From: Barthelona sp. PCE
Taxonomy: Eukaryota
DNA: 59,133 nt
Direction: 5' to 3'
NCBI GenBank assembly: GCA_040285745.1
Contig: JAUFOR010000004.1
Coordinates: 1,364,001-1,423,133 of the forward strand
Part shown: positions 23,118 through 56,871 of the stretch, in pieces
Layout of the letters: each line of letters opens with the position of its first letter
Position numbering within the stretch: position 1 is the first letter of the stretch
Notes under the pieces: generated by a model
Database searches by the model: none
Told to the model about the DNA's origin: nothing
What the model saw: only the letters and a program-made list of their open reading frames with translations
Program-made: the position numbers and the translations under genes

Positions 23118-25211
23118 ATGCCTAGGGTTCGTAAATTCGAGGAAGACCTTGTCATGCAGGCTTATCCTGAGGGGCAGATGATATTTGAGGGCCAGGGCGT
23201 AGTATTGCTTAAGTCAAGAGGAAACATCAGCCTCATTGAAAGCGCTATTGAAGGCAAGGACTTCGTTGGATACGTGGAGAATACGCGTGAGCCTCTTCAA
23301 TACACATCCAAATTAAAAGCTGGAGAATCTTACATCATCGAAGAGCTTCGTGAAAATCGTTTAGTAACCCATTTTGATATCTTATTATTTGATCATATCA
23401 TGAGTGATGAACATACAAGAGGGAGAATACCCTTCCCTTTTGCGAACAATCCAAATATACGTCTATTAGGTAGAATGATTCCGATGGATGAAAACCACCT
23501 ACTATTCACCATTATGGATAGAGAAATCTTTAATAATAATGGGCGATATATCCATTGTTACATATTAAATGTGCAAACGGAGGAATATAGATGTCTTGGA
23601 GAGTATGACTCTCAACCAACCGTTAATTCAAACTACATTTTGTTAAAGAAATGCCAAGATGATACCATATGGCATTACAATTTTTCTGCAGATGACATAG
23701 ACGAGGCACATGAACCTAATATTGAGCAGTTGCATGGTATTGATTCAAGATACTTCGGGTGTTTAAACTCGGATTGCATTTTCTCAGTCCTTCAAGGTCA
23801 TAGATATGGTGAATTGGTAATATTTGACAGTCAAAGGAACCAAGTTAACTTGACAGAAAGGTTTCCACAGCTTAAAGGATTGAATATTAGCAGATTCTCG
23901 AATTTTGCATTATTAACGCTCACTCAAGATGTTTTGTCAATGGTATTCATTGATTTAAGATTTGTGGAAGTGATTCATATCGAAAATGGTGAATTGAAAA
24001 TGTCAAAGGGTGAAATGAATTTGAGTATTGTACGCTTCAATGACTTGAAGCATATAGATTTGAACGATAATTCCTTTCATCATGAAGATTGTGTTTTTTG
24101 TGGTGTTGACAAAATTACAAGACGTTATGGCCCAATCAAATTCAGAGCAGTTGATAATGAGGTTGTGCGTTTGGCAAGCCTTGAACCAGCAGAAGTATTT
24201 TTTGATGGAATAGCGGAAGTGGATAACGGTTCGATAAGATATTACTTTTTTTTCAAAGAAAGGAAGCTTATTGTGCTGCGTGGGTGTAGGCCGGTTTCAC
24301 ATACGAGCTGCGAGATCCGATCAGTTCATCCAAATGAAGGAGATGATTTTTTTGTAATGGCAGAGAAGCATAGTGAAACAAATACATATGTCAAAATTCA
24401 CTGGCGCTGGTCAGAATCCAAGCCTGTCACAACCATTTTACCTCATTGCGGTTCTAATAACCGTGGTTTTATTCAAGGGTTGCCTGTCAATGTTGACCGT
24501 CTTGAGGATCGTACAGGCTTGGTGTATTTGGGAAGTAAGCTGCTTTTGGATCTTCCCCCGAATATTTATGTTCGAGGTGTTCATCGTTCACATTTTGATA
24601 ATTCAGCATGCATTCTGTGTAGAGATACAATCCATTTTTTTCGGTTCAATGTCAACGGGTATGTTGTGGAGGTTCAAAAGCACATTGTGTTTGAACATGA
24701 ATATTTATATGATGTTTACTTCAACCCTCGTCCATTGGCTGAAACACCTGATCATCAGCTGTTTGTTGTATATACACGCAGTAGGGCTGCAACAACGCAA
24801 CATTTACACTGTCTTGATTGGTCAACAGGAAGCTTCTTAGAGCCTGTTCACCTTTATCAGTATTATAAGAATGAAAAAATTAAGGAAGGTAACTTTTTCC
24901 GTAATTTCGTGGGAGATTCATACATACAGGTGAGGGGTGGTATCATTAAAGTATACGTTGAAGATGGTGCAATTGAAACGCATTTTTACATAAACGACAG
25001 TTTACCATATGAATTGAACATAAGCCACGATCAAAATCTGCTCAATAACACTATTCAAGACATGTCATACGAAGAAGAGACCAAGACAATGGTGCTGAAA
25101 ACTTACAATATTGAGGAAGACCCGGAATCGATCAATCCCACAGTGGAATCGTTCCACCTTCCATCGTTCCTGGCCGAGGCGTCCATCGTTGAGTATTACA
25201 TGCCAGATTAA
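23118..25211 (+). CDS. Lineage-specific ~700-aa beta-rich (possibly double beta-propeller) protein, family copy A
   Basis: 697-aa ORF, close paralog of 42405..44546 and 54748..56871. No signal peptide or TM segment is evident. The fold is inferred from the strand-like pattern only. Confidence 0.9.
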   Translation: MPRVRKFEEDLVMQAYPEGQMIFEGQGVVLLKSRGNISLIESAIEGKDFVGYVENTREPLQYTSKLKAGESYIIEELRENRLVTHFDILLFDHIMSDEHTRGRIPFPFANNPNIRLLGRMIPMDENHLLFTIMDREIFNNNGRYIHCYILNVQTEEYRCLGEYDSQPTVNSNYILLKKCQDDTIWHYNFSADDIDEAHEPNIEQLHGIDSRYFGCLNSDCIFSVLQGHRYGELVIFDSQRNQVNLTERFPQLKGLNISRFSNFALLTLTQDVLSMVFIDLRFVEVIHIENGELKMSKGEMNLSIVRFNDLKHIDLNDNSFHHEDCVFCGVDKITRRYGPIKFRAVDNEVVRLASLEPAEVFFDGIAEVDNGSIRYYFFFKERKLIVLRGCRPVSHTSCEIRSVHPNEGDDFFVMAEKHSETNTYVKIHWRWSESKPVTTILPHCGSNNRGFIQGLPVNVDRLEDRTGLVYLGSKLLLDLPPNIYVRGVHRSHFDNSACILCRDTIHFFRFNVNGYVVEVQKHIVFEHEYLYDVYFNPRPLAETPDHQLFVVYTRSRAATTQHLHCLDWSTGSFLEPVHLYQYYKNEKIKEGNFFRNFVGDSYIQVRGGIIKVYVEDGAIETHFYINDSLPYELNISHDQNLLNNTIQDMSYEEETKTMVLKTYNIEEDPESINPTVESFHLPSFLAEASIVEYYMPD

Positions 25212-25289
25212 CATGCCCAGATGAATAATGAATAGTTTCCATGACTACGGAGATATAGGAATACACATTTTCTCCTATTGTTTATAAGG

Positions 25290-25432
25290 ATGATTTTCTT
25301 TTCCTGGTTTCATCACTGAAGTTCGGATATGGTGCCGCAAAACGGGTACCTTCTTCAGAGTTTGGAAGTCCATACATCTGAAAAATAGTAGTATTTCAAT
25401 TACTAAATAGTACAATAAAATAAATAGGAAAC
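25290..25432 (+). repeat. Right direct repeat of cassette A
   Basis: ATGATTTTCTTTTCCTGGTTTCATC...CAGAGTTTGGAAGTCCATACATCTGAAAAATAGTAGTATTTCAAT...AATAAATAGGAAAC aligns to the upstream repeat 41932-42076. Confidence 0.8.
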
Positions 25433-25520
25433 TGAGAAATTGAAATACACCCGCATACGTTCTATTCCATTCTTTGTTTAAAATAAATTACAGGATCGTC
25501 CTGATCAGTGACAGTAATTG

Positions 25521-26075: not shown

Positions 26076-26392
26076 ACAAAGAAAGGATAAATTGTGAAAT
26101 ACAACTACTCCACTTGAAGTGAATTAGTATATCAACCTATTTCCATTCACTTTAGTATTTAATCCACAAAAAAGAATGTCAAACCTAAAATGTTGCTGAT
26201 ACTACAATAAAATGAATGTAAACAAACTAACTATTACACAGCTATTCAACATCATAATATCGCTCAATTTTCTCTTAAAGCTCATAAAACACAAATATAA
26301 TATCAAAAAAAAGATGCAACAGTTGGTTTGCATTTTCTCACTCCTTTTTATTTACTTTTTTTACTTTTGCATACACAACATATAATAGTAAC

Positions 26393-28975
26393 ATGCCAAC
26401 AACGTTGAGGAACACTTTTGAAAAGCAAACTGTTATTCAGAACATATATAGTCATAAAGAACCTCAGACATGTACTTTAAGTGGGTCTGAGTATCTTTTC
26501 ACAATCTGCGATGGAACAGTTCTCATGATGAACGACGCCTGCGAAGTTGTGAAGCAATTTATGGGAAATGCCCAGTCAATTACATGTTTTTCCGTTTGCA
26601 GCATCAATGAGTTGTTGTACGTGGTTGACAGGTCCAACATGATGCTCATATATGCGCTTGACGATGACGAAAGCGCATTGCATGAGGTGAAAATTGGATC
26701 TAAATGCCCTATATCGATTTCGCTCGACTCAACAGGACGATTTGCTGCCGTGGGTTCTTCTGACAACACTATCCGTGTGTTTGATGTCAGCCTTCGTCAC
26801 ATGACACATCTTTTCAGGTGCGGTCGTGTACCTGAGATCATCTCGTTCATACCTGGAGAACTACAATTTTTAGTCGCTGCCCAAAGCGATCCTGTGATCA
26901 AGGTGTACGATTTGCATGAGAAAAAGCAGGTTGGATCTCTTAGGAATCATCTTTCGAGCATTGCGTACATGCGCTTTCTTTTTGATGGAAAGTTTTTGCT
27001 ATCAACTGGTTCAGACAACGTTATTTGTTTATTTGATGTTAAGGAAAGACGCTTTTTGACAGAATTCACAGCAATGGAGACAATTCATACCATCTTGGTG
27101 CTTGAAGAAATATGTGATTCACCAATCGCCAACTCCGATGTCATTGCACGTGTTCTTGTAGCAGGAGAGTCCAACAACGTGCGCATTGTGGACGTAACTC
27201 TTGATCGTTTCAAGGTGAAGTCAGAATATAAACTCCCAATCACCAATTCCAGTCGGAAAAACTATGCATCTGATTATATCAGGCATGGTGTCCTTTTAAA
27301 TGGCCGTGCCATGCTCTTCTCAACCCTCACTCATATCTCAGTATTGTCTGAAACATTTGATGCGATTGATTTTTCTATTCTAGGTTACTGTGATACTGTT
27401 ATCTCAACAGGTTTCTTACCCTGGAAAAAGGAAGAAATGGTGGTTGTCACAAACGATGCATTCGTCGTGCACCGCCGTCTGGGCTCCATGATGGGTCAAC
27501 TATTGTTTGCTCACACTGAGCCAGTGCTTTCTGCATGCATCTCTGCCCGATCAAAACATATGGTAACAGTCAGTAGGGACAAGTCCTCTGTGTTGTGGGA
27601 ATACGAAGATGGATCTTTTGTGCCGCTTGTGAGACTCACGGGCCACACATCAAGTGTTACGGGTGCCTCCATCTTTTCATATTCCGAAATAGAGATGGCT
27701 GTTTACACAGTTTCAGCAGATAGGACGCTGAAACGCTTCGATATCAACACACACAACATCAACGGCGATGCAAAAGCCACATGGACTCAGATTATCCATG
27801 AGACGGATATTAACTCCATAGATATTTCGCCCAACGGCAATCTTATCGCCACTGGCTCCCAAGACAAGACCATTGCAATCCATACCTGCGATGGTGAGTT
27901 TGTTGATAGGCTACGAGGTCACAAGCGAGGTGTATGGAACGTTCATTTCTCACACAAAACAAAACTTTTAGCCTCTTGTTCATCGGACGGCACAGTTCGA
28001 TTATGGTCGATGGAAAACTACGAGCTCATGAAAACGTTGAAACTCGTCGAAAGCGGCGCTGTTTTGGACGTGTGTCTTATTTCTAATGATATGCAAATTG
28101 CTGCCGTCTATTCAACAGGTGTTGTTGCTGTTATCAATATCAAAACAAGTGAGATGGCGTTCGGTACCGATGCACACGACGGATCTAGAGTGTGGACTAT
28201 CAAATCGTATGACGATGGTGATCATTTGCTAACGGGTGGCAGTGACGGAAGTGTCATATTCTGGCATGATAAGACTGAGGAAGCCATTCGTCTTGAGGAA
28301 GAAGACAAGCAGGCAAAGTTGGAGCTCCAACAGAAGCTGTGGAACTTTATCAAAGCAAAGAGGTATGTAGAGGCCGCACATATTTGTTTGGAGCTCAATT
28401 TTTCTAAAAGATTATTGACTGTTATCGGAATGATGAATGACAAGTCGCTTCATCAATTTTTGTTTGAAACTGCAAAGAAAGATATTCCAAACATCCTTTT
28501 ATTGCAGGAAAGAAACAGCAGAAATGAAGAGAAAGAAGAGCTTGAGGTTCTTGAGACCAATAGTCGTAACCTCGGCATGGAAACAACTGACATGGGTACC
28601 ATCCTGGATGTCAAGCGTGATGAAAAGAAGGTTATAAGCCTAATGCTGAGATTATTCAAGTTCTGTAGAGACTGGATGTGTCATTCACGAACGTACACAG
28701 AAGCAGTCCGCATAATCACCAAACAGCTTGAAATACACGCTCTTGACCGCTTTTCTGAGTTGCTTTCTCTGGATATGTCTAATTCGAAGTTTATAATTCT
28801 TACTGTTCAGAGTTATTTACAAAAGCACATAAATAGGTTACACAGGATGTTGCATACTGCTTATATTCTGAAACAATACACGGGAATGGATTCTTTTGAA
28901 GAAGAAGAAGACGGTGAAAAACCACGTATAGTTGCTGTTGAGAATGCACTAAATGATATTAAGAACAGTCTTTAA
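26393..28975 (+). CDS. UTP13: U3 snoRNA-associated protein 13 (TBL3), WD40 repeats plus Utp13 C-terminal domain
   Basis: HETDINSIDISPNGNLIATGSQDKT, LRGHKRGVWNVHFS, LLTGGSDGSVIFWHDKTEE, QQKLWNFIKAKRY and FCRDW are characteristic of TBL3/Utp13. Confidence 0.9.
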   Translation: MPTTLRNTFEKQTVIQNIYSHKEPQTCTLSGSEYLFTICDGTVLMMNDACEVVKQFMGNAQSITCFSVCSINELLYVVDRSNMMLIYALDDDESALHEVKIGSKCPISISLDSTGRFAAVGSSDNTIRVFDVSLRHMTHLFRCGRVPEIISFIPGELQFLVAAQSDPVIKVYDLHEKKQVGSLRNHLSSIAYMRFLFDGKFLLSTGSDNVICLFDVKERRFLTEFTAMETIHTILVLEEICDSPIANSDVIARVLVAGESNNVRIVDVTLDRFKVKSEYKLPITNSSRKNYASDYIRHGVLLNGRAMLFSTLTHISVLSETFDAIDFSILGYCDTVISTGFLPWKKEEMVVVTNDAFVVHRRLGSMMGQLLFAHTEPVLSACISARSKHMVTVSRDKSSVLWEYEDGSFVPLVRLTGHTSSVTGASIFSYSEIEMAVYTVSADRTLKRFDINTHNINGDAKATWTQIIHETDINSIDISPNGNLIATGSQDKTIAIHTCDGEFVDRLRGHKRGVWNVHFSHKTKLLASCSSDGTVRLWSMENYELMKTLKLVESGAVLDVCLISNDMQIAAVYSTGVVAVINIKTSEMAFGTDAHDGSRVWTIKSYDDGDHLLTGGSDGSVIFWHDKTEEAIRLEEEDKQAKLELQQKLWNFIKAKRYVEAAHICLELNFSKRLLTVIGMMNDKSLHQFLFETAKKDIPNILLLQERNSRNEEKEELEVLETNSRNLGMETTDMGTILDVKRDEKKVISLMLRLFKFCRDWMCHSRTYTEAVRIITKQLEIHALDRFSELLSLDMSNSKFIILTVQSYLQKHINRLHRMLHTAYILKQYTGMDSFEEEEDGEKPRIVAVENALNDIKNSL

Positions 28976-31037
28976 TTAACCCAGATAAACGAGCATCGCT
29001 TCTGAGAACCTTAAGCATATTTGGAAACCTTAAAGTAAAAAACAAACTCAATTCTCTATCCTTGGTTAGACTAATACGCTTTTCATATATCTTAATTTCA
29101 CGGATTAGATCAGCAATTTTGAAGTTAAATTGATGCAATATTTCAACAGGAGTAATTACAAAAATTTTTTCAATAAAACGTAACATATGAATATCTAATA
29201 ACCCATTATGACCAATAAAAAGTATATTCAACCAATTTTGGTAAGCAAAAAACGATTGCTTCTGATGAAAATTGATGTATACAGGCAGCATTTTATCAAA
29301 AAAAGTAAAGAAAAATGTTGGAAAATTCAATCTTGTAACAGGTGATACATTCAAAATCCTCACAAAACGAATAGGATCATTCACATACGACTGACATACT
29401 ATATTAAATACCTGTGATGCATATTTTTTCTCAATGTGATCAAGAATAAATGAAGGATACACGAATTGATCCTCCTCACATGGAATTAAATGCTCAAAGT
29501 CTGCATTCATTAACAAGTCAATCATCAAAATTGCCTCTTCCTTTTCATCTGCTGATAATTCTCTCCCGGAAAGATTAGCGAAAAAAGTTTCTATCTTGGG
29601 AAACCCTCCTGTAAAACAAACCATTACATTACAATCATGATACAAAGCGTTAAAAAGAATACCAACCTCAGCACTTGAATATACCTCCACGTCTTCTGGT
29701 TGATCACATGCAAAAAAAGCTAGCAACTCGGTATCAATGAGAATGCACTCTTGCAAAATTGAAGAAATGCATGTTCCACCATCCCACTCTTGTACCAACT
29801 GCGTCATCTGTGATTCGAAGATTGAAAGACCAAAAAAAGTCTTTTGGATTGTCTTTAACACCTTTACGATTTCAAAAATCGAAAAAAGAGAAGATTCTGT
29901 TGATCTTATAGAATTCAAACAAATAAGTGAATTAACATGATTGGATACGATAGAGTAATCATACGCACCCTCTTCAACAAACTTGGAAAGGCTCCATACT
30001 ATTCTCTGTGCCAATTTCTGAATTGGTAAATCAAAAAAAGTTTCGATAACGGTTTCATCGTTGTTACTTGCAAAAAAAGCATTACAAGCACGACACATGC
30101 GGTATATATCTCTACATGTCACACTTTGGGGTTCAAACAAAGACAACACTGCACTTATGTAATCACGAGGAGCATAATTGAAGAGATGCACATTCTTACA
30201 TAATGATCTAAAATCGCTTTCCTTAATTAAGTTAATTATGTGTTCCCTACCAATTAAACAAGATACCTTATCAATCTCAACAATGGAAAATTTCTCAGTA
30301 AATGTGAGCTTAGAAAAATTCTGCATAAATATCCCCATTTCTTCATCATTCAAAGTCAAACCCAGAACCATTAAACCGCAAACTGTGTCACATACTTGGC
30401 GTGGAGTGTTTTTATCATTGTAAATTAAGTGAAGATGATCAACAAGAAGTTGCTGTGGAAACCTGTAGAGCGAAATATATCGAGATTTTAATCTATTAAA
30501 AAATATTGAATCATCAATGTGTGTGCGAAATATGGCATGTATATTGGATACAAACTTATTTTCCACTTTTTCCTGCTCAAACCAATTCATACCAAAAACA
30601 GCCTCCGTCTTCTCACATGTAATTGTGTTCAATTGGGCGCACGACTTCAAGTAAGCGTAGTACTGCTCGTACTGCGAACATAAAACATACTCTGCAAAAA
30701 CAATTGCAATAAATTTGTGAAACTTGGAAATATGATTTTCTATTTGAAGGTGGTGATCATATATCAACCTTACAGCGACTGGTATAATGTCCTTAGGTGC
30801 AAAATGTGTGCTTTCATGCAATAAATAATCGACAAAAACAGTAAACAATTGTTCTTGCAGCAAAAAGGCTGCCCGACCAACAAACTGAATGAAATGCTGG
30901 ATCTCGTCTGCAGTAAGACTCGATATAGATGCAAACTTCCTCTGTATAATCTCATTAACTTCTAATTGGATATTTGAGATATACAATCCTCCATCAACAG
31001 TATTCTCACTTGAAATGATGTCGAATTCTGCTTCCAT
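28959..31037 (-). CDS. Hypothetical helical protein (692 aa)
   Basis: Long ATG-started ORF; its 3' end overlaps UTP13 by 17 bp; no motif recognised. Confidence 0.75.
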   Translation of the reverse strand: MEAEFDIISSENTVDGGLYISNIQLEVNEIIQRKFASISSLTADEIQHFIQFVGRAAFLLQEQLFTVFVDYLLHESTHFAPKDIIPVAVRLIYDHHLQIENHISKFHKFIAIVFAEYVLCSQYEQYYAYLKSCAQLNTITCEKTEAVFGMNWFEQEKVENKFVSNIHAIFRTHIDDSIFFNRLKSRYISLYRFPQQLLVDHLHLIYNDKNTPRQVCDTVCGLMVLGLTLNDEEMGIFMQNFSKLTFTEKFSIVEIDKVSCLIGREHIINLIKESDFRSLCKNVHLFNYAPRDYISAVLSLFEPQSVTCRDIYRMCRACNAFFASNNDETVIETFFDLPIQKLAQRIVWSLSKFVEEGAYDYSIVSNHVNSLICLNSIRSTESSLFSIFEIVKVLKTIQKTFFGLSIFESQMTQLVQEWDGGTCISSILQECILIDTELLAFFACDQPEDVEVYSSAEVGILFNALYHDCNVMVCFTGGFPKIETFFANLSGRELSADEKEEAILMIDLLMNADFEHLIPCEEDQFVYPSFILDHIEKKYASQVFNIVCQSYVNDPIRFVRILNVSPVTRLNFPTFFFTFFDKMLPVYINFHQKQSFFAYQNWLNILFIGHNGLLDIHMLRFIEKIFVITPVEILHQFNFKIADLIREIKIYEKRISLTKDRELSLFFTLRFPNMLKVLRSDARLSGLIKDCS

Positions 31038-31229
31038 GGAAATATTAGCCAGTTATAAACAACCGATAAACAAAGGTAAGAGAAATATAATAAAACAGGC
31101 ATGAACTAGTGCTATATCGCCATATGCTCCCATTGACAGTGGCAATAAAAAACAAAGAGATAGAGGTGACCGTTGGATGGTTCAAAAGCCCACTCAAACT
31201 TGCTATATTTTTTTTTCGCTTTATTCATT

Positions 31230-34887: not shown

Positions 34888-34942
34888 TTCTCCTCCTAGT
34901 AAATCTTTTTTTTAAATTTTCACATTTACTATTATTGCTCAA

Positions 34943-41880: not shown

Positions 41881-41931
41881 AAAAGTAGAAAACGGATATG
41901 AGAGTGACACAATAAATTTGTATTCAACACT

Positions 41932-42076
41932 ATGATTTTCTTCCAGAGTCTCATCCATGTTAACGGGTAGTAAGGGAGAGTAAACAAACTCTTTACAGAG
42001 AATTAAGTTTGGAAGTCTATACATCTGAAAGTTTATAGTATTTCAATATTGAAAGTACAAAAAATAAATAGGAAAC
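41932..42076 (+). repeat. Left direct repeat of cassette B (uninterrupted)
   Basis: ATGATTTTCTTCCAGAGTCTCATC...CAGAGAATTAAGTTTGGAAGTCTATACATCTGAAA...TAGTATTTCAAT...AATAAATAGGAAAC. Confidence 0.8.
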
Positions 42077-42139
42077 CGTAAAAGAATAAAATTTGGGTTG
42101 TAGTTCATCTGCAAAACACTCAAATATATTATCTGCAAT

Positions 42140-42404
42140 CGTACCACAACGCAGCAAAAAAGTGCCCCACAACCAAACCAATGCCCGCACGCGTCAAAAA
42201 TCTTACGTGTCACGCGCTACAAGCCCTGCGAACCACATCAATAAATGTGTGAGGGGATAGAAATGCGAATGCAGTTCTGTTTCACATTTTCGCTTTCTGT
42301 TTACGCTTCACATGTATTATATCATTTGTATATGCCACGTGCAAGCACTAATATTTAGTATATACATGCTATCTCAATTTTCACCTGCATCATCACGGCT
42401 ATTC
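42140..42404 (+). promoter_or_regulatory. Conserved upstream element of the variable family (copy B)
   Basis: Near-identical to 22853-23117. Confidence 0.6.
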
Positions 42405-44546: not shown

Positions 44547-44600
44547 TTTCCATGACTACGGAGATATAGGAATACACATTTTCTCCTATTGTTTATAAGG

Positions 44601-44736
44601 ATGATTTTCTTTTCCTGGTCTCATCACTGAAGTTCGGATATGGTGCCGCAAAACGGTACCTTCTTCAGAGTTTGGAAGTACATACATCTGAAAAATAGTA
44701 GTATTTCAATTACTAAATAGTACAAATAAAATAAAT
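44601..44736 (+). repeat. Right direct repeat of cassette B
   Basis: Nearly identical to 25290-25432 and alignable to 41932-42076. Confidence 0.8.
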
Positions 44737-44963
44737 GTGAGAAATTGAAATACACCCGCATACGTTCTATTCCATTCTTTGTTTAAAATAAATTACAGGA
44801 TCGTCCTGATCAGGGCCAGCATTTGCCAGGTCACAAAATTTTTTTTTGCTGACCAGTAAATTTTGTGTCCATAATCGCTATAAACATTTACATGGCCTAC
44901 AATGGTTAGGTTTGAGCGTTCTATTTAAAATAAACGCTGTTTATCAACATTCATCCTTTTCTT

Positions 44964-47900
44964 ATGGACATTTTTCAAAGATTATGTGGGGAAGAGTTAA
45001 GATATGATGACCTCTTTAGAAGGTTGTATGAGGCTAACATAAATTTGGCATTAGTTAATTTTCAAGAACTGGTCTCTATTAAAGCCCAACGTATTTACTT
45101 AGATCTAAGCATATCCAAGAAGGGTTATGAAGAAGTCTACCAGATAGGACTGTCAACCAGGACCAGTTGGATTAGAAAGTACGTTGCCAATCTGTTTAAG
45201 ACACGGCCCAAGTTCTTTCATCATATCATCACCAGGAATGACTTTTATGAAGTATTTAGTGCTGCGCCACAGGCATTTCGTACACGAATAATAAGTCAAC
45301 TAATTAGATATGGAAAGCATGGTTGCTATTCCACTATTGCTGACAGTTTTATCACTAACAAAGCTTGGAGTCAACTATTAAATGGCAATCAGCTCCACAC
45401 CCTTTATGTGTGTGCTTCACCTAGTGTTGCAAAGGATCATATATGGAAACAATTCATTGCAACTCTATCAATTCCCATTGAATTTGTTCAGCCCCGTTTC
45501 TATGATATTGTTTATAATTTCTACCTGAAAGCAATAGCATGTTATCTTGATAAAGAGTTGTATTCGTCAAGTGCAAACCATATACGCTTTAATAGCTGGG
45601 TATTATCATCGAGAAAAAGATGTGAACCAATATTCAGACATTTGATCACTATAAAGGGCAGTATAAATTGTTTAATTAGGCTTTTTGATGGATCTTCCAT
45701 TGCAAAGTGCGATCTGCCAAGTCGTGTAATTCACATGTTTGCAGTTCAAGAACCTGTGTTTTTTTGTGAACATCTTTTTTCAAACCAAAAATATCACTAT
45801 AGCAAATTCTTTGATATAATGCCATATTTCATAAAATATCATAATGATGATGTTGCAATGGAGGCATTCGAAATTTATTCTAGACACACAAATGTATCTA
45901 TGCATGAAATTTGCAACTGCAACAAACGTGGTTATTCGTTTTCAACCGATCCCAACAGTCTTTTTGTGCGAATTCTTGAATGTGTATTGTGCAATGACCG
46001 TATAAGTAAGCTAAAAGTGGAAAAGAAACCTTCATATCTGAAACGTGGTCATGTATTTGATAATTTTTTTCTTGTTGAAGATATATTTACAATAACAAAC
46101 AGGGCATTACTACTTCTTCCTCAAGTGCATGAGTATAAAAAGGCAGTATCCAACCAATTATATGAACTTCTTGAGAATGAAAGGTATTGGAAAAAATTTT
46201 TCAATCCCACTCATTTTTCTGGTGTTCTTGGTCATATTATTCCCTTTATAACACTTGATAGGGCCTCTTTACCTCAATCAAAATATAATATTTGTATCTC
46301 AGGAAAAACGCATGAGGTTAGTCATATCATGTATCTTTTTGTTGGTAATAATGGTCTGCTTCATATCAAACCCAACGATGCTTTATTTCGTTTACTGCAA
46401 AGATTCATTTGCACTGGTGATTGGAGCGAGTGGAATGTATTTCAAACCATTAGTCCCCACATTCTGAAAAGAATTGAGGGTGCTGCAGTGTACATTCGTC
46501 TTGAGTATGATCTTTACTCAAATTTTTACAATCGCGAAACAGTTGACAACATCACTGAATATTTTATGGATAACATTGATCACCGTATCATTCAGCGAAT
46601 GTTTAAATACACTGATGTTTTTCAGTGCATGGTAAACCATAAATTGGCGAGACAATATTTCCCTCTTGAGGACATGCAGTACTTTTTTGATAAAATGATG
46701 GAGGTTTTAACTTTTTTCACAGAAAAAGTCATGAACAAAAGTGAAGAATTTCAATCTTGTGTCTCGTTGTCGTTGAAGGATTTACGTGATGTGTACATAT
46801 CACACCCATACCGTGTACTACCCCACTACTTCGAACGCGGCCGAGGATGTAGTTTACAGATGCTTGAAGTTAAAAGAAAAAGCCATGATAGATATAACAA
46901 ACCCGTTAACTATGTATCTGATGAAATGTTTTGCTATGTCATGAATGATCTCATTGCTCGTCAATCTGCTGCTGGAACGGATGACTGTGTCTTTCAACAA
47001 ATTTTCTCATATCTGGTTAAATACTTAAACAAACGCTCGGTTTGGAACTACACAGAGAGAAAACTGTATCGTGACAACCAAAAGCTGATCAGGATGTACA
47101 CCTTTGATCAGTATCTACCATTGTGTAACGGTAATTCTGCAAACAATCTCAAACTTTTGCACCTAGAGTCAAATGAAAATCCTGGTGCAACGACAGTTTA
47201 TCCCATTGCTCGCCACAAGGCCCGCCACAAGGTTGTCAAGGGTTACCAAGACCCCTTAACGAACAGCCGTATCATTACTCGCAGTGACTTCGTTAGCAAG
47301 ATGTACAGAATCAGCTCCGTCTATGACATCCCCAACGTTGAGCGCTTCGATTCCCTTGCTATCCAGGTTCGCGATGAGATTGCTCATTACTTTGATCCCC
47401 TCGACAAGCTGTTCGGTCTTTACACCGATCTCGAGGAGCTCGACCGCGATATCTCCGAGATGAGCGACCGCGACATCGAGGATGAGGAGGCCGAAGCTGA
47501 GTACAAGGAGATGCTTCAGTCCCGCCGTGACCTCGTCGAGAGCATCTCTGATCTAATCAACAGCACCCTGGACGTGAACGAGATTAACAACATGCTCCGT
47601 ACTCTGCAGTTATCCCTTCGCTTCTCCACAACCTTCCTCAATGAAGAGTTCGTCAAGCGCATCATTGGCTTCACACACCTTTCCAACCGTGCTTTCACCA
47701 ACTCAAACATCCTTGAGCTCTTCAAACGCGTCATCTTCATCCTCGGCCGCATTATGTGCCTCACCGATCTCTCTTTCGCTGAGATGGCCCGCTCCGCGCT
47801 TCTCACTGCCCTCACTATCCCCAAGTCTGCTCCTTTCGTGCGCACTCTTCTCGAGGGATATGTCATGCACACGTCTGTCGAGGAGCAGAAGCGTCTTTTC

Positions 47901-49337
47901 GATGATCTCATTGCTCTCGCATATTCCGATGAGTGGCGCTTCGGCATCACTCCCATGAAGATGATCATCGGTGTTGTCCAGGCACTATCCCGTCAGAACG
48001 CTGGCGTTAACCCCGCCGCCTTCCTAAAGGTTATGTGGGACCAGGAGACCATGGCAGTCGATGTCCGTCTTGTTCTGCTCAACTTCGCCGTTGATCAGAT
48101 CTCTCTCATGCTCAACAAGGGATGGAGCGATTCCGTTTTCGAGAGTGAGTACTGGCAGCTCGTCGGTCTCGCTGCACGCCGTTTCTACGGTGTTGTTGTG
48201 ATTGTCGAGCGCATCGTTGAGTTCATCACCTTCCTCTACAACAAGATCGGCACCGAGCACTGGAACGATGCCTTCAATTGTGTTGTTGGCCACTGGCTCT
48301 GCCCCATCATGGAGAAGGAATTCCGTGACACTCGTACCGACTACAAGAACGTCGAGATCGTCCTTAATTCCATCATTAATGCCTCTCTTCACACCCAAGG
48401 TTACTCTCTTGTTAACGTATCGCTCCCTGACCGCTTCCTGCAGTTCTGTGAGCAGTACGCCCAGCCCATCTTCCGCTACTTCAGCCGCTTCACCGAGATG
48501 ATCTGCCTCGTCTTCTCTCAGCGTCGTGATAGCAAGCGCCTCCTTAAGATGCTCGAGCCTCTCAAGGACACTTTCCGCGAGAACCTCACTGTTTCTATCG
48601 AGCAGCACTTGGCAAAGGCCCGCGATCGCACCCACCAGTTGTATGTGCCTTTCTTGAACAACAATTTGGTTGCTCAGAAGCTTAATGACGTGTGCAAGTA
48701 CTATCTGAAGGACGATATTGCTCTCACACGGGAGTTCTTCAGAACCATCTCTACTTTCATGCTTGAGTGTTACAACGAGATCGATGGATTCCATATCGGA
48801 GAGGTATGGTGGCAAATGTACATTGCAAGTCATTTCGACCTTGTTTCAGCAATTAAATCTATTGTTGATCTGTACAAGCAAGACGCTCTTGTTCCCCACA
48901 TTTCATATAATGGGGTGCCATTTTCAATATTAAGTGTGATCATGAAGAAGGACAGTGCACGTAGTGAAACGGCAGAAAGTTTGTGTAATGCCATGAATGT
49001 GATAAATGATTCCGAACTTAAAGAATCTTTGAAGCTAAGATGGCTCATGATCATTCTAAAACTTTTTAACGAAGGTGGTATTGGTTTTAATCCAATTCAT
49101 GCATACCCCTCTGATTATATAGACCATATTCCTCTGGACAAGTTTCTTCGCGCAAATGTGTCCGACATTTGCTATTTTGAAGTTTTGAATAAGTTTCTAA
49201 ATAACACTCGCAGTTATCATTTTCCGAACAACATTGTTTCAAGCTCAATTACTGCCTTAAGCATTGGTTTGAGAACTGTAGAAAGCAAAAGTGTTATAGA
49301 ACCTTATATCCGACCTATAGTTCGCCAAAACTTATAA
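44964..49337 (+). CDS. Large hypothetical helical protein (1457 aa) with an internal segment of distinct codon usage
   Basis: Single long ORF. AT-rich codons at both ends, strongly C-ending codons at about 47200-48800. Confidence 0.85.
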   Translation: MDIFQRLCGEELRYDDLFRRLYEANINLALVNFQELVSIKAQRIYLDLSISKKGYEEVYQIGLSTRTSWIRKYVANLFKTRPKFFHHIITRNDFYEVFSAAPQAFRTRIISQLIRYGKHGCYSTIADSFITNKAWSQLLNGNQLHTLYVCASPSVAKDHIWKQFIATLSIPIEFVQPRFYDIVYNFYLKAIACYLDKELYSSSANHIRFNSWVLSSRKRCEPIFRHLITIKGSINCLIRLFDGSSIAKCDLPSRVIHMFAVQEPVFFCEHLFSNQKYHYSKFFDIMPYFIKYHNDDVAMEAFEIYSRHTNVSMHEICNCNKRGYSFSTDPNSLFVRILECVLCNDRISKLKVEKKPSYLKRGHVFDNFFLVEDIFTITNRALLLLPQVHEYKKAVSNQLYELLENERYWKKFFNPTHFSGVLGHIIPFITLDRASLPQSKYNICISGKTHEVSHIMYLFVGNNGLLHIKPNDALFRLLQRFICTGDWSEWNVFQTISPHILKRIEGAAVYIRLEYDLYSNFYNRETVDNITEYFMDNIDHRIIQRMFKYTDVFQCMVNHKLARQYFPLEDMQYFFDKMMEVLTFFTEKVMNKSEEFQSCVSLSLKDLRDVYISHPYRVLPHYFERGRGCSLQMLEVKRKSHDRYNKPVNYVSDEMFCYVMNDLIARQSAAGTDDCVFQQIFSYLVKYLNKRSVWNYTERKLYRDNQKLIRMYTFDQYLPLCNGNSANNLKLLHLESNENPGATTVYPIARHKARHKVVKGYQDPLTNSRIITRSDFVSKMYRISSVYDIPNVERFDSLAIQVRDEIAHYFDPLDKLFGLYTDLEELDRDISEMSDRDIEDEEAEAEYKEMLQSRRDLVESISDLINSTLDVNEINNMLRTLQLSLRFSTTFLNEEFVKRIIGFTHLSNRAFTNSNILELFKRVIFILGRIMCLTDLSFAEMARSALLTALTIPKSAPFVRTLLEGYVMHTSVEEQKRLFDDLIALAYSDEWRFGITPMKMIIGVVQALSRQNAGVNPAAFLKVMWDQETMAVDVRLVLLNFAVDQISLMLNKGWSDSVFESEYWQLVGLAARRFYGVVVIVERIVEFITFLYNKIGTEHWNDAFNCVVGHWLCPIMEKEFRDTRTDYKNVEIVLNSIINASLHTQGYSLVNVSLPDRFLQFCEQYAQPIFRYFSRFTEMICLVFSQRRDSKRLLKMLEPLKDTFRENLTVSIEQHLAKARDRTHQLYVPFLNNNLVAQKLNDVCKYYLKDDIALTREFFRTISTFMLECYNEIDGFHIGEVWWQMYIASHFDLVSAIKSIVDLYKQDALVPHISYNGVPFSILSVIMKKDSARSETAESLCNAMNVINDSELKESLKLRWLMIILKLFNEGGIGFNPIHAYPSDYIDHIPLDKFLRANVSDICYFEVLNKFLNNTRSYHFPNNIVSSSITALSIGLRTVESKSVIEPYIRPIVRQNL

Positions 49338-49496
49338 ATAAACAGTTTAAGTACAAGGACAATCAGCTACAAGATTATAAAGACCTTGAAATGAATAATT
49401 GAAATCTTCAAAATGTTTGTTAGTATCGTGTGTGTGTTGCATTATCCTTTTCTATCTCTTTCATTCACATTTTTTTTTTGTGAAAACAGCATATTG

Positions 49497-50255: not shown

Positions 50256-50269
50256 TTTATTTAATTTTT

Positions 50270-52843
50270 TCAGTGCTCTCTATACTCATTTAACAAAAAA
50301 TTGTTTAATGCAAAAGGCTTATCCGAATATTCAGAGAAAAAGTCGATGAAACCAATGTGCTCAATGACCGACTCAATCTTTTGTTTTGGCATTATTGAAC
50401 AAAGGTATTTGTACACTACGCACTGACACGGAATCCTGCACTTCCCCTTCAATTGCTCCTTGAATAGAATAATCTGACTGATAAAGTTTCCTTTGTAAAA
50501 ATCTTGGTGTTCATGATGTGGAGGAGGATATTTGTCATCTAACATGTTTTCGATCCAAAAAACAGTGTTTTGATCGTATTCCCTTGATTCATCAAAATTT
50601 AGATTCATCAAATGATCCATTTCTAAACGCTGAAAATAAACAGCACATTTTAAATGGTTAGTTAAAATCAAATAATTCCTCACCATATCTACTAAAATTG
50701 AAACATCTTCAAACGAAAATTCCATAAACAATACTTTGAATATGGAATTGATAACAACACTGTAGCTATCTTTCTCCACAACCTTTAAATCAAATCTTAC
50801 ATTGGCGGCATTCATAGCAGCATCAACTAGCTTAGGTGGTAGTTCATGAAAAGATGGCTCCAACAAACACTTAATCGCATCTGGTTCTCTTGGTGGATCA
50901 AAATCTATGAGATCGGGAATTTGAATCTCTGTGGTAAGATCATCACTGATGTGAGGTGTGAATTCAAATTTCTGTAGTGCAAGACCTTTTCTAGCTACAT
51001 AAGCGACATTATCATCTGTGGTATTAGCTGCTGATCTATTCTGCTGCTGCATGGCGCGTGCCATTGAGGATAACGACTCAGCCATCTTTGCTAACGAAGT
51101 TGATACTTCTTGCATAAACACGCTCTGTGTTGCCACAAGCGTATCGACAGTCCTAGCGAGGGATGCAACCTGTTCACTTAACATATCTTGTTTATGGGAG
51201 TTGGTTTGCTTATGAGTGGGAGATTGCTTTTCTGTAATGAACAAATCATCAACTTCAACTACATTTGTCTTCTTCTTCTTTTTCTTTGGTTTTGCCTTTG
51301 ATTTAGACACCTTGAGAACTGCATCATCATTGTGCCTTTCTTCGCTAACGTAGTTTGGCATTGGAACGTAATTAAAGTCTACAAGAACGGAAGGATGTAT
51401 TTGATGAAAGTTTTTAAAAATCTTTTGAGGAAAACTGAACTGAAGGAAAAATTCCAAACGTTTGTACTTGATACGCTTCAACAGGACCTTGTTTACCGTA
51501 TAAGTACGAGAAAGAGCTCCAAAAACATAAAAATCAGGTAAATATCTATCTGATGAATTCTTCCTTTCATGTATCACCGCCAAAGGTTCAGCTATGTGAC
51601 TGGGGTAGTCAAACTTAAAGAGACCGCCAGCAATCATGCGAGCAACAGTGTTTATCTCCTGAGTCAATGGGGAATTGCGAAGTTTAGTGATATGATCGAT
51701 GAGCGCCTGTTGGCTATAACTCATCAAATCCTTCACAAATGTATTTCCCATCAACTCTGCCAATCCGTCATGTAATGCCTGTTTGGTCTGCCTGTTAATC
51801 TCTGGTAAACATTTTGTCGAATTAAACAAAGCTATGCATATAAATGAAATGCGTTCAATACTCCTGAATTCCATGAACCTAGTATAGCCAGGCAGACGCT
51901 CTACTGCTGCAGAAATCGCTTTCTTATTGATTACTGACTGGATAACTTCAACGTTCTTCTTTTTCGTTGGCTGTGCAAAAAAAGCATCTATCAAATTTGT
52001 TTCTTTTTGAGGCTCTACTTCCATCTTTGCTGCTCTGATCTGCTGTTTGGGTTTATCAATCAATATTGCACCGTCTAATGAGAAGGAGTTTTCATTCATT
52101 ATTGATACACAAATCTTGTAACATTTTTCAAATATTTCAGAACTATAAACACGTTTGAATGCATCCTCAACAACTTCAACGGGCAATGGAGCCAGGATAC
52201 TGCAATAAAATGACAAAAATGGTACGCCCAAAGATGCAAACCTATTATCTCTTACAGAAGACTTTGCCAACCTTGGAAAATGTTGAATAAGACACAATAA
52301 CAGTAATAACTCCGGAATAACAAACTGGTTGGGCATCTGCTGCTCATTCTTAATTGCTAAAAAAAGTCTAAAACCATGAGCTCTTTCATCCTTAATATCG
52401 TAAAATGAGTGAAGGAACCGAGTTATGTGTTTCTTGACCAGTCTGTCTAAATCATCAGCAATTTCATCATCATAATTACAAAACTCAACAATTGGGGAGC
52501 TTCTCAAATGTTGAGCTATAGCAGATAGTCTTTCACTGTCAAAGTACTTACAAATTACAGATTTAATAGGTCCAATGTCGAAACTTACCCTGTTTGTATG
52601 GAATAAAAGCTTGAAAAAGTGGCATTCAAAGCGGGATAAACCATAATCATGTAATACTTGCAGTTCCGCAATAGTTAGTGGCCTATCCCGGAGATTTGTC
52701 ATTGGTAACCTCTTTGGAAGCTGAGACAAATGAAATTGTTCTGAAAGAGAGGATGATAAAGTGAATTCTCCAATATTACTTCTTTTAAGCATAATATGCC
52801 ACGTATAAGGTCGAAAATACATAGTAACAAAGGTGTTATACAT
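50270..52843 (-). CDS. Hypothetical protein (up to 857 aa) with a poly-Lys tract and short coiled coil; start uncertain
   Basis: Long ORF; KSKAKPKKKKKK is a possible NLS. Downstream ATGs (MLKRSN, MTNLRD) are alternative starts. Confidence 0.75.
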   Translation of the reverse strand: MYNTFVTMYFRPYTWHIMLKRSNIGEFTLSSSLSEQFHLSQLPKRLPMTNLRDRPLTIAELQVLHDYGLSRFECHFFKLLFHTNRVSFDIGPIKSVICKYFDSERLSAIAQHLRSSPIVEFCNYDDEIADDLDRLVKKHITRFLHSFYDIKDERAHGFRLFLAIKNEQQMPNQFVIPELLLLLCLIQHFPRLAKSSVRDNRFASLGVPFLSFYCSILAPLPVEVVEDAFKRVYSSEIFEKCYKICVSIMNENSFSLDGAILIDKPKQQIRAAKMEVEPQKETNLIDAFFAQPTKKKNVEVIQSVINKKAISAAVERLPGYTRFMEFRSIERISFICIALFNSTKCLPEINRQTKQALHDGLAELMGNTFVKDLMSYSQQALIDHITKLRNSPLTQEINTVARMIAGGLFKFDYPSHIAEPLAVIHERKNSSDRYLPDFYVFGALSRTYTVNKVLLKRIKYKRLEFFLQFSFPQKIFKNFHQIHPSVLVDFNYVPMPNYVSEERHNDDAVLKVSKSKAKPKKKKKKTNVVEVDDLFITEKQSPTHKQTNSHKQDMLSEQVASLARTVDTLVATQSVFMQEVSTSLAKMAESLSSMARAMQQQNRSAANTTDDNVAYVARKGLALQKFEFTPHISDDLTTEIQIPDLIDFDPPREPDAIKCLLEPSFHELPPKLVDAAMNAANVRFDLKVVEKDSYSVVINSIFKVLFMEFSFEDVSILVDMVRNYLILTNHLKCAVYFQRLEMDHLMNLNFDESREYDQNTVFWIENMLDDKYPPPHHEHQDFYKGNFISQIILFKEQLKGKCRIPCQCVVYKYLCSIMPKQKIESVIEHIGFIDFFSEYSDKPFALNNFLLNEYREH

Positions 52844-52918
52844 TGTTCTCCTTCATATTGCATTTTTGAGCCTATTAAACCTAATGATGAGATTGAAAGA
52901 TCAAATATCAACACATTT

Positions 52919-54737
52919 ATGGTTGCAGCTGATTTTGAGAGGCGTATAAAGCTTCCTGTTAATGAAATGAAACTGTATAAGTCCTGTCATAATTGTGTCT
53001 ATGAAACAGGTAACAATACAGTTGCATTTTTCAATTTTAATGGATCTGGTTTTGAAGAAATGGGAAGGATATCAATCAGTAGCTTTTTTGGATGTGAATT
53101 TTCCAAATCAACTGTTACAGTATTGAGCGAAGATATTCTTATTATGAATATTTCAAGACGTACTTACATTGCAAACATATCACAAAACGAGTGCATTGAG
53201 TACCCAGATGTGAGACTTTGGTGCAAGCTTTCAAGAATTACTGTTCTAGTTTCAGAGCAAAAAAAGTATATGATACCGATGCTGGGCAGTGATGGTAAAG
53301 TAGACATGGTGTACCTTCCTTTTCAAACAAATATAGATATTGCTATTGAAGTTGTGAACTCAGAAAACCCAACATGTTTCTTTGGCATTAGTAGTAAATT
53401 ATATTTAGTGAGTATATTTGAAAGAAATGCTGAAGTAATTGACTACCAAATTGATGTATGGTTCAACCGGATGAATTCTCCAAAGGAGGCTATTTGTTTG
53501 AACGGGTACTGTTATTTTTCACTCACCATTACAAGCCTCTATGATTGCTTTTCGCCGCTTAGATGACGGTAAGATACTACGTAGCATCGAGGTTAGTAAT
53601 TCACACTTCAGAAGATTTTTGTGCTTTGAAGGAATCGTTTTTGGTGTGTATAGCGATTATATTTATCCATTTATTGTTTTGCATAACATTGATGGATTTG
53701 CAATTATTCCTAATATGCCATTCGGTCTGTCAGACACAAATACAATTTGCCGCATGCCGATGTTTTCATCAACGCAACATTCTGCACATTTTGATATTTT
53801 TAGCAATTTCGGTCCTCGTGCAATCATCCATGTGGTTGATGAGAAAAAATCATGCAACATGCTTGTTAATGTGAAGGTATGTATCAATGATGGTGAATTA
53901 ACCGTTCTTAGGTTGCTTTACGGAGACGATAGGTGTTCAACCTTTTTAGGAGATGATTGTTTAGCAAAGGTATCAATGACTATAGATGATCATGCTATAC
54001 ATTCAGACTTACTCACTTTTACTTCAAATGGCGTAGTGAGAATTTCTCAAAAGTTTGAAAACAATATGTACATCAATAATTCCGTTATCAAAGTGCCATA
54101 TCAAGCTGAAGACTGGTTTGATGCAACCATAGTGGATAATATAATATGGGTAGGCGGCTCTAATTGTACCGGTATTGTTGTTCTTAATCAGTGTGGAAAC
54201 GTTGTTGATTTCCAAACAATAGAAACTTCTGTTCCGTTTATGGTGCCCAATCCCAATCCTTACAATCCGTACAGTGCACTGATTGCCAGTAGTCGTTTAG
54301 TTGCATTACTTTATTATGATATGGAGAGCAAAAAATTCAGAGAAAAAATAGTTGAAGAAAATTTTAATGTTGGGCAAAAATTCTTCTTCATAAACGAAAC
54401 AATGTTTATTATTGGTAACCAGTTGTTTGAGTTTACTGAGGGAAGCGTTAACTTGGTGAATAATCAACTACCGTGGGTGTGTTTCAACTCTTTGGAGTTT
54501 TACTATTATTCAGCCTCAAAGAATACAATATCTCGACTACACATGAGGCTTAAAGGTTACGATATGGTTGTAGATGTGCTTACGCTCGATGGTTCTCATT
54601 GTTACTCAATAGATGAGAATAGATGTAATGTAGTTACTTTACTGTCAGAATGTAATGAATTGTTCACCATTTCGAGTATACGGGACGATTTGATCAAAGA
54701 AACAAGCTTATATCACAATTACCATCATCATTTCTAA
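52919..54737 (+). pseudogene. Frameshifted ~605-codon beta-rich gene (pseudogene or sequencing indel), possible distant relative of the variable family
   Basis: ORFs 52796..53566 and 53541..54737 overlap in different frames. Removing one G from AACGGGTAC (53504-06) gives a continuous reading ...ICLNG-TVIFHSPLQASMIAF... Confidence 0.6.
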
Positions 54738-54747
54738 ATGGTAGACG

Positions 54748-56871
54748 CTATTCATTATGAAAATGCTCATGATAATCGGGCATGTGGTACTCAACGATGG
54801 AAGCCTCCGCCAGGAACGATGGAAGGTGGAACGATTCCACTGTGGGATTGATCGATTCCGGGTCTTCCTCAATATTGTAAGTTTTCAGCACCATTGTTTT
54901 GGTCTCTTCTTCGTATGACATGTCTTGAATAACGTTGTTAGGTAGATTTGGATCGTGGATTATATTCACATAAGGGAAATTATTGTTAGTGAAAAAACGC
55001 GTCTTAATTGTACCGTGTTCAACGTATACTTTAATGATACCACCCCTCACGTGTATGTATGAATCTCCCACGAAATTACGGAAATAGTTGCCTTCCTCCG
55101 TTCCATCATCATATGATCCCTTCCAAAGGAGAACAGGCTCTAAGAAGCTTCCTGTTGACCAATCAAGACAGTGTAAATGTTGCGTTTCAAAACCTTCATC
55201 ATCTTCATGTACAACAAACAGCTGATGATCAGGTGTTTCAGCCAATGGACGAGGGTTGAAGTAAACATCATATAAATATTCATGTTCAAAAACAATGTGC
55301 TTTTGAACCTCCACGTCATACCCGTTGACATTAAGCTGAAAAAAATGGATTGCTTCACTACATAAAATGCACGCTGAATTATCAAAATGTGAACCATGAA
55401 CACTTCGAATATAAATATTCGGGGGAAGCTCTAAAATCACCTTTTCTCCCAAATACACCAGTTCTGTATCTTCACGATAGTCAACATTTAAGGGCAACCC
55501 TTGAATAAAACCATAGTTTTCTGAACCACAATGAGGCAAAATGGTTGTGATTGGCTTAAATTCTGAGCCGTTCCAGCATAATTTGACATATGTAGTTACT
55601 ACTTCACTACGTATCACTTCTTCTATTACAATAAAATCACCTGCTTCATTTGGTTGAACTGATTGGATCTCGCAGCTCGTATGTGAAAACGGTTTCCTAC
55701 ACCCACGCAGCACAATAAGCTTCCTTTCTTTGAAAAAAAAGTAACATCTTATTGAAGCGTTATTATCATACACTTCCGCTATTCCATCAAAAAACATTTT
55801 CTTTGGGTGAAGACTGTTCAAACGAAACACCTCCTTACTAGCCTCTCTAAATTTGATTGGGCCATAACGTCCTGTTATTTCATCAAAACCATAAAAAACA
55901 CAATCTTCATCACGAAAGTAATTATCGTTCAAGTCTATATGTTGCAAGTCATTGCAGAGTACATTCAAAAAATTCAGTTTACCCTCTAACATCTTCAATT
56001 CACCGTTTTCGATATGAACTACCACATATCTTGAACCAATAAGTAGCATTGACAAAACATCTTGAGTGAGCGTCAATAATGCAAATTTTGAGTCTCTGTC
56101 AATATTCAATCCTTTAAGCTGTGGAAATCTTTCTGTCAAGTTAACTTGGTTCCTCTGAGCATCAAATATTATTAGTTCACCAACTTTATATCCGTCAAAG
56201 CCAACAAAACAAGTGCAATCCGAGTTTAAACACCCGAAGTATCTTGAAGGGATATCACGCAACTGCTCAATATCAGGTTCATGTGCCTCGTCCATGTCAT
56301 CAACAGAAAAATTGTAATGCCATATGGAATTATCTTGATATTTCCTCAACAAAATGTAGTTTGAATTAATGGTTGGTTGAGAGCCATACTCTTCAAGACA
56401 TCTATATTCCTCGGTTAGCACATTTAATATGTAGCACTGCCTCACTTGCCTGTTATTAACGGTATCACTAATGGTGAATAGTAAGTGGTTTTCATCCATC
56501 GGAAATATTCTGCTGCATTGCCTCATAAAGTTGTTCATCTCAAATGGGAAGTGTATTCTCCTTCTTGTATGTTCATCACTCATGATATGATCAAATAATA
56601 AGATATCAAGATGGGTTACAATATTATGGTCACCAAGTAGCTGTTTGATGATCATGTAAGATTCTCCAGCTTTTAATTTGGATGTGTACTTAAGAGGCTT
56701 ACGCGTATCCTCCACATATCCAACAAAGTACTTGCCTTCAATGGCGCTTTCAATGAGGCTGATGTTTTCTCTTGATTGAAGCAATACTACGCCCTTTCCC
56801 TCAAATATCATCTGCCCCTCAGGATAAGCATTGATGATAAGGTCGTCCTCGAATTTTCGAACCCTAGGCAT
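54748..56871 (-). CDS. Variable beta-rich family protein, copy C (last long intact ORF before the terminal repeat)
   Basis: Paralog of copies A and B, starting MPRVRKFE at 56871. Shares the upstream element but not the direct repeats or the 3' flank. Confidence 0.9.
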   Translation of the reverse strand: MPRVRKFEDDLIINAYPEGQMIFEGKGVVLLQSRENISLIESAIEGKYFVGYVEDTRKPLKYTSKLKAGESYMIIKQLLGDHNIVTHLDILLFDHIMSDEHTRRRIHFPFEMNNFMRQCSRIFPMDENHLLFTISDTVNNRQVRQCYILNVLTEEYRCLEEYGSQPTINSNYILLRKYQDNSIWHYNFSVDDMDEAHEPDIEQLRDIPSRYFGCLNSDCTCFVGFDGYKVGELIIFDAQRNQVNLTERFPQLKGLNIDRDSKFALLTLTQDVLSMLLIGSRYVVVHIENGELKMLEGKLNFLNVLCNDLQHIDLNDNYFRDEDCVFYGFDEITGRYGPIKFREASKEVFRLNSLHPKKMFFDGIAEVYDNNASIRCYFFFKERKLIVLRGCRKPFSHTSCEIQSVQPNEAGDFIVIEEVIRSEVVTTYVKLCWNGSEFKPITTILPHCGSENYGFIQGLPLNVDYREDTELVYLGEKVILELPPNIYIRSVHGSHFDNSACILCSEAIHFFQLNVNGYDVEVQKHIVFEHEYLYDVYFNPRPLAETPDHQLFVVHEDDEGFETQHLHCLDWSTGSFLEPVLLWKGSYDDGTEEGNYFRNFVGDSYIHVRGGIIKVYVEHGTIKTRFFTNNNFPYVNIIHDPNLPNNVIQDMSYEEETKTMVLKTYNIEEDPESINPTVESFHLPSFLAEASIVEYHMPDYHEHFHNE

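Follow-up and report, generated by a model that had tools for sequence, protein, structure and literature searches.

The window examined here is a 59,133-nucleotide stretch of gene-dense eukaryotic DNA on contig JAUFOR010000004.1 of the free-living protist Barthelona sp. PCE (PMC11316075). It contains three close paralogs predicted to encode tandem beta-propeller proteins: copy A (P0003; window positions 23118–25211, plus strand, 697 residues), copy B (P0043; 42405–44546, plus strand, 713 residues, 96% identical to P0002 on another contig), and copy C (P0001; 54748–56871, minus strand, 707 residues). The three can be aligned end to end with 85–87% DNA identity and 74–77% protein identity, and every insertion or deletion in their coding parts keeps the reading frame. 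A fourth family member, P0057 (7244–8293, plus strand, 349 residues), was overlooked in the initial annotation of this DNA; it is distant and retains only the N-terminal half, with an E value of 2e-113 against the family profile.

Searching with a profile gave 42 proteins: A and C themselves and 40 named as Barthelona sp. PCE. An exhaustive HMMER scan of 1.84 billion representatives gave 19 matches, none outside Barthelona sp. PCE. Combining homology searches and cluster look-ups, we count at least 62 proteins (58 named Barthelona sp. PCE and the 4 encoded in the window), which is ~1.2% of the 5064 predicted proteins. They are spread over seven contigs of a 10.2-Mb genome with 4.46% repeats, described as the smallest known for a free-living eukaryote (PMC11316075). 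Among metagenome contigs, 115 pattern matches yielded no confirmed relative, nor did 65 among viral contigs. One protein search covered fusions of up to 1248 residues; searches for shorter family proteins, run on predicted proteins, gave no match but were insensitive, since short members exist. At least 650 residues are present in 53 of the 60 aligned members, so the family is probably not mainly a pseudogene archive; the other seven are shorter, and truncated members include P0058. One protein on another contig, P0042 (958 residues), joins ~74 N-terminal family residues to an unrelated protein with a C-terminal kinase domain and weak WD40-like matches, a possible capture of a family 5' end and promoter.

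An AlphaFold2 model of C, built from a 60-row alignment, has a predicted local distance difference test score of 84.7 and a predicted template modeling score of 0.75. Nearly all of it is four-strand blades, arranged in propellers at residues ~66–342 and ~348–682 with short termini. The model of a distant member has the same strand order, and in both models the four-stranded blades close into propellers; the fold searches used the model of C. Foldseek returned tandem WD40-type and other propellers at E values of 1e-11 to 1e-8 with no standout match, and VIA-align gave the second propeller a Z score of up to 12.1 (root mean square deviation 5.3 over 296 residues). At the sequence level, the 60 members have no Pfam family in common and no WD40 family among matches at E values up to 1. 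There was no PDB sequence match, and the ESM Atlas gave only weak propeller leads. Neither blastn nor blastp of copy C found an internal repeat, and shuffling at the level of single blades was rejected on this ground. A hydropathy scan of 33 members, made without a dedicated predictor, found no N-terminal hydrophobic leader and no C-terminal anchor stretch. The highest 19-residue hydropathy was 1.2–1.7 in 32 of the 33 members and 2.07 in one, where it was internal, and the C-termini are polar. The proteins are predicted to be tandem beta-propellers and are probably cytosolic.

The initial annotation had described A, B, and C as recombinational mosaics in which the closest pair changes at a shared 12-mer. 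This 12-mer occurs once per copy (A 24384–24395, plus strand; B 43689–43700, plus strand; C 55582–55593, minus strand), and the switch is exactly where it had been placed. In the 110 columns of the alignment that precede it, A and B mismatch at 5/101 positions, A and C at 21/101, and B and C at 17/104; over the 102 columns after it, B and C mismatch at 1/102 and each of the other two pairs at 22/102. The tract in which B equals C (B 43701–43802, plus strand; C 55581–55480) thus has one mismatch in 102 bases, with 91 bases exact. GENECONV-style permutation gave p values of 2e-4 for the B/C tract (43701–43793 and 55581–55489) and for a tract in which A equals B and C differs (A 24774–24881, plus strand; B 44079–44186), while the best A/C tract was weak (p 0.02–0.03); these values come from six tests and are uncorrected for multiplicity. 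Sites at which two copies agree against the third (n = 442) fall into 210 runs versus 292 ± 10 expected (p 1e-4). All of the motif pairings that had been listed are present; some are common family alleles (FALLTL.. in 12/33 members, TVNNRQV in 11/33) and others are rare (4/33). Three sequences have a single unrooted tree, so counts among A, B, and C alone cannot separate conversion from local bursts of change in one copy, nor can they show incompatible trees. For this reason, the whole family was tested.

When A, B, and C were combined with one other member at a time, 12 of 29 quartets had clustered, mutually incompatible topologies after Bonferroni correction. The remaining tests used 32 of the 62 proteins, those that are full-length and at least 62% identical to A; P0029, which is truncated, and every distant or short member were left out. 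A pairwise homoplasy index (PHI)-type test on these 32 gave z = -24. Incompatibility was 0.61 for sites 1–5 residues apart and climbed to a plateau of ~1.3 beyond ~75 residues. The signal held on 343 gap-distant columns (z -9.4) and once 10 long-tract partners were dropped (z -21.4), whereas z lay between -0.2 and +4.5 in 20 of 20 simulations on a single tree (the best one, each site retaining its rate and position). Identical tracts of at least 100 residues occur five times among 489 pairs of 85% identity or less and never in any simulation; the simulated alignments recover roughly half of the clustering of variability along the sequence (0.19–0.27 versus 0.44 in the real alignment) and fall slightly short in identity (0.69 versus 0.73), which makes the comparison of tracts a little lenient. 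When the alignment was divided into six segments, each rejected the trees of the other five as well as the whole-gene tree (approximately unbiased [AU] test, p ≤0.002), and the likelihood gain from segment trees was 1314 versus 402 ± 41 for 22 random-column partitions. One tree does not fit all windows. The PHI-type and AU tests, the likelihood gain, the simulations, and the quartets all strongly bear out the mosaic description, and we are highly confident that historical recombination has shaped this family.

The longest tracts identify partners outside the window. Residues 227–349 of A (23796–24164, plus strand) are identical to P0027 over 123 residues, with 69% identity outside the tract, and include 11 alleles found in at most 4 of 32 members. 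Residues 372–520 of A (24231–24677, plus strand) are identical over 149 residues to P0029, which lies on another contig and has 79% overall identity; this match is the reason that A appears to differ after the 12-mer. Residues 563–702 of C (54766–55185, minus strand) equal P0010 over 140 residues (74% outside the tract), and residues 179–294 (55990–56337, minus strand) equal P0007, on another contig, over 116 residues (77% outside). Further identical stretches join C to P0004 (108 residues), B to P0005 (114), and B to P0006 (106). In general, copies that are ~70–80% alike elsewhere have 100–140 identical residues in common, mostly across contigs. Of the 17 tracts of 60 or more residues, 15 have their two partners on different contigs, and copies on one contig are on average no more alike (identity 0.726) than copies on different contigs (0.727). 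The tracts carry rare alleles private to 2–4 of 32 members, not the family consensus.

Two other members illustrate the same process. Most differences between copy B and its 96% twin P0002 fall in two patches; the alleles are of C/P0006 type in one and of A type in the other. P0032 is a chimera, with residues 1–560 being 80–100% like a divergent subfamily and residues 561–680 being 88–95% like the main subfamily; its junction lies at a conserved block, and the two subfamilies are only ~50% alike. In DNA, the non-coding flanks that A and B have in common differ at 28/659 bases (4.2%) versus 83/449 synonymous sites (18.5%, p 2e-14). The pattern fits a copied cassette whose interior may later have been overwritten, but strong constraint or conversion on the flanks would give the same result. 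The idea that A, B, and C form a closed set converting one another did not hold up, as each of the three stands only 6th to 20th in the others' lists of relatives, and the longest tracts of all three are with other members, mostly on other contigs. Since they are not mutual closest relatives, the donors are drawn from the dispersed family as a whole. The patchwork seen among the three mostly reflects sampling from this family-wide pool, and direct conversion between them is neither needed nor shown. On the same ranks, a recent tandem triplication of A, B, and C was rejected.

Variation within the proteins is concentrated in one class of loop. Loops D-A and B-C, named by blade strand, have mean entropies of 1.27 and 1.36, versus 0.52 and 0.55 for loops A-B and C-D (23 versus 24 loops, p 1e-7), and this bias is repeated in the divergent subfamily (8 members, p 6.5e-4) and in 13 distant members (p 1.7e-6). 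Recurrent length variants affect 14 of the 23 D-A/B-C loops and 2 of the 24 A-B/C-D loops. Seventeen variable loops each have 19–27 distinct alleles among the 32 members, and these reassort: when a pair has one loop allele in common, the next is also in common in only 24% of cases, versus a 3% baseline. This makes plausible the proposal in the initial annotation that the family is a combinatorially diversified repertoire. Using codons of A, B, and C and one synonymous rate, the ratio of nonsynonymous to synonymous change (omega) was, for loops defined by structure, 1.6 for the top (D-A/B-C) loops, 0.45 for the bottom loops, and 0.65 for the rest, with the top loops exceeding 1 (p 5e-4). Segments defined by entropy gave 1.6–2.2 by counting, a definition that is biased upward. 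Diversifying selection on the loops is only suggested; the loop values may partly reflect alleles kept from long ago, multi-base changes, or a relaxation of constraint.

Taken together, the best explanation for these observations is a dispersed, lineage-specific propeller family in which ectopic segment exchange feeds a selected loop repertoire. Copies would swap in-register segments, from tens of bases to ~450, whichever chromosome they lie on. The likely route would be ectopic homologous recombination during double-strand-break repair with a paralog as template, giving gene conversion and sometimes crossover. Metamonads, considered as a group and not this genome in particular, have been reported to lack non-homologous end joining (NHEJ) and to rely on homologous recombination (PMC8516963), and DMC1 has been reported in Barthelona strain PAP020 (bioRxiv 2025.05.23.655837). 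The conserved framework strands, A-B and C-D loops, and termini would supply the homology that allows in-register exchange. The D-A and B-C loops, which would form the canonical ligand face of a propeller, hold many alleles that recombination would reassort; their diversity is most likely maintained by selection for new binding specificities. The result would be one constant scaffold, its termini conserved, that bears combinatorially assembled binding surfaces, perhaps serving recognition of, for example, proteins of viruses, intracellular bacteria, or prey. We lean toward this explanation as a whole, if only somewhat, and consider the step to a selected recognition repertoire, taken on its own, reasonably likely.

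Several points weigh against this account. The DNA tests cover A, B, and C, and the family-wide tests cover predicted proteins from one assembly. Overall omega for A, B, and C is 0.7–0.85, which is weak constraint. When the top loops are given their own synonymous rate, it is 1.74 times higher, the fit is better (p 0.009), and their omega falls to 1.03–1.08; polymorphism at four-fold sites (9/36 in variable loops versus 6/46 and 12/69 elsewhere) involves too few sites to bear on this synonymous rate. The blade labels were read from DSSP strand order beside the entropy track and not from coordinates, so the placement of the variable loops on one face is itself an inference, and the conserved opposite loops may simply pack against the other propeller. 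Finally, no NACHT, HET/effector, F-box, BTB, or SOCS-type Pfam match was found in 60 members.

The mosaics could also be real but neutral. In a weakly constrained, expanding family repaired mainly by homologous recombination, repeats above ~85% identity would be converted and loops would vary as exposed, unconstrained parts of the protein. The free-rate omega of ~1.0 for the variable loops (0.82–0.85 overall) agrees with this, as does the reported loss of NHEJ in metamonads (PMC8516963), and the truncated members (7/60 below 650 residues; P0058) and the stray fusion P0042 are signs of birth and death. However, the other loop class also lies between strands and yet is conserved in three member sets, long open frames are kept in 53/60 members with only frame-keeping indels in A, B, and C, and ~60 copies persist in a 10.2-Mb genome with few repeats. 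We regard neutrality as possible but rather doubtful. A selfish or mobile cassette, with gene and flanks copied to new sites and mosaicism as a by-product of copy number, would explain some features of the non-coding DNA. The 5' flank of A (22737–23117, plus strand) is 94.5% identical to B 42021–42404, its last 265 bases being ~90% identical to C 56872–57139, and the 3' flank (25236–25520, plus strand) is 97.5% identical at aligned bases to B 44547–44825 and absent in C. A and B therefore share flanks of ~380 bases upstream and ~280 downstream. A direct repeat of ~60 bases also lies either side of A (25374–25432 downstream matching 22737–22789 upstream, plus strand, 83%) and of B (42006–42069 and 44669–44736, 82%), copies occur on seven contigs, and P0042 joins the N-terminus of the family to an unrelated kinase. 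Still, A and B remain alike past the repeats, neither repeat is present in C, it is not obvious how a propeller would help an element move, and no transposase, integrase, or reverse transcriptase domain was found in members. We consider a cassette very improbable.

Assembly or polishing chimeras, in which error-prone nanopore reads and Illumina polishing blended paralogs, deserve mention given that the assembly was made from Albacore R9.5 reads with ABruijn, Nanopolish, and Unicycler (PMC11316075). Coverage was nevertheless 66x with long and 308x with short reads, Merqury completeness was 98.4%, and there were 3 duplicated BUSCOs (PMC11316075). With so few duplicated BUSCOs, separated haplotypes were also rejected as the source of the copies. 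Blending would not readily account for tracts made of alleles private to 2–4 of 32 members instead of consensus, for the many tracts that are near-identical but not identical, for indels that keep the frame, for a PHI-type signal that persists without the long-tract partners, or for P0032, which joins subfamilies ~50% alike. Moreover, the 91-base exact tract between B and C is shorter than a usual short read. We consider such chimeras highly improbable. The least probable reading, for which we see very little chance, is antigenic variation of the trypanosome variant surface glycoprotein (VSG) kind, in which silent archived copies supply the sequence that rewrites the one surface copy being expressed. 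The initial annotation had made this comparison, and it stands for the process: as in mosaic VSGs of Trypanosoma brucei, segments are converted within the reading frame among related donors, and the 85–87% DNA identity here is within the range that supports VSG mosaics (≥73%, PMC3708902). Some members are also truncated. The comparison fails for the product, as the hydropathy scan found neither a signal peptide nor a glycosylphosphatidylinositol-type tail, the proteins are predicted all-beta propellers, and most copies are intact. Mosaicism affects many members and not one site, and this free-living organism has no host antibody pressure and no known expression site for the family.

A closer parallel to the exchanging propeller family is the HNWD/NWD repertoire (het-d, het-e) of Podospora anserina, which has a beta-propeller recognition surface (PMC1805685); the propeller fold is also predicted here. 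Selection in HET-E acts on residues of the d-a and b-c loops, the two loop types that make up the top platform for interactions (PMC1805685). Likewise, the Barthelona family exchanges sequence between dispersed members and, by DSSP-derived blade labels, varies in the d-a and b-c loops on a homogenized framework. The systems also differ. The central NACHT and N-terminal HET domains are absent from the 60 members, whose model has two propellers and short termini. HNWD genes swap near-identical WD40 repeats within a gene, whereas here exchange is in register between genes and the blades are not near-identical. There is no Pfam WD40 match, and omega on the loop residues is 1.6 or 1.03–1.08 depending on the model. 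The family thus works like an HNWD repertoire but belongs to neither the HNWD nor the VSG class. Tandem WD40-type double propellers (IFT-A subunits, SSU-processome Utp proteins, Elp2, EML1) have the same fold class but align with TM-scores of 0.16–0.31 and at most 12% identity, and they are conserved single-copy genes. The F-box and MATH-BTB families of nematodes and the F-box families of plants are rapidly evolving cytosolic substrate receptors that resemble the Barthelona proteins in family size, a variable binding surface, and a conserved terminal module; we offer this as a lead only, as the 60 members have no F-box, BTB, or SOCS-type Pfam match.

Other features of the window were also recorded. 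Upstream of A, ~230 bases (22508–22736) are missing from the corresponding region of B and break the shared upstream repeat; this insert has a 10-base inverted repeat (22537–22546 and 22728–22737) and no Rfam match, and is possibly a small mobile element. The window as a whole gave no Rfam or tRNA match. A single open reading frame (ORF) at 33010–34887 (plus strand) fuses an ornithine carbamoyltransferase (PF02729, PF00185) to an amino-acid-kinase-family domain (PF00696), the latter probably a carbamate kinase, which would make this an arginine deiminase pathway fusion. Tail to tail with C, two ORFs (256 and 398 residues; 52796–54737, plus strand) overlap, each in its own frame, around a run of T near 53514; either this is one gene of ~650 residues with a frameshift or small intron, or the run contains a homopolymer error. 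It has a family-like start but no homology, and was rejected as a family member. Long ORFs without a Pfam match are at 44964–49337 (plus strand, 1457 residues), 50270–52852 (minus, 860), 16323–19040 (minus, 905), and 28959–31052 (minus, 697). A WASH complex subunit 4/7 homolog is encoded at 9352–12690 (minus strand), and a phosphatidylinositol transfer protein at 8353–9333 (plus strand), directly after P0057.

The mechanism proposed here belongs to a familiar class. In the literature we searched, which did not cover subscription papers and which held nothing on gene conversion in Barthelona, we found no description of the family, of its stand-alone double-propeller form, or of its host. The main text and six searchable supplements of the genome report, one picture-only file aside, mention no propeller, WD40, or gene family, and the main text no expansion (PMC11316075). 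Tentatively, and with more doubt than confidence, the family may be an effector-less repertoire of cytosolic double-propeller receptors, still reshuffled between chromosomes under selection, and so an innate-immune-like system evolved independently in a free-living metamonad. What can be said is that at least 1.2% of the genes of Barthelona sp. PCE belong to one unannotated family that shuffles across chromosomes and varies on the propeller face on which selection acts in fungal HET-E. If selection is confirmed, the family would be a candidate recognition repertoire, with a short list of loops, in a free-living protist, a kind of organism about whose immunity-like systems little is known. If the variation is neutral, the family would still cleanly document ectopic conversion in a lineage that reportedly has no end-joining repair.

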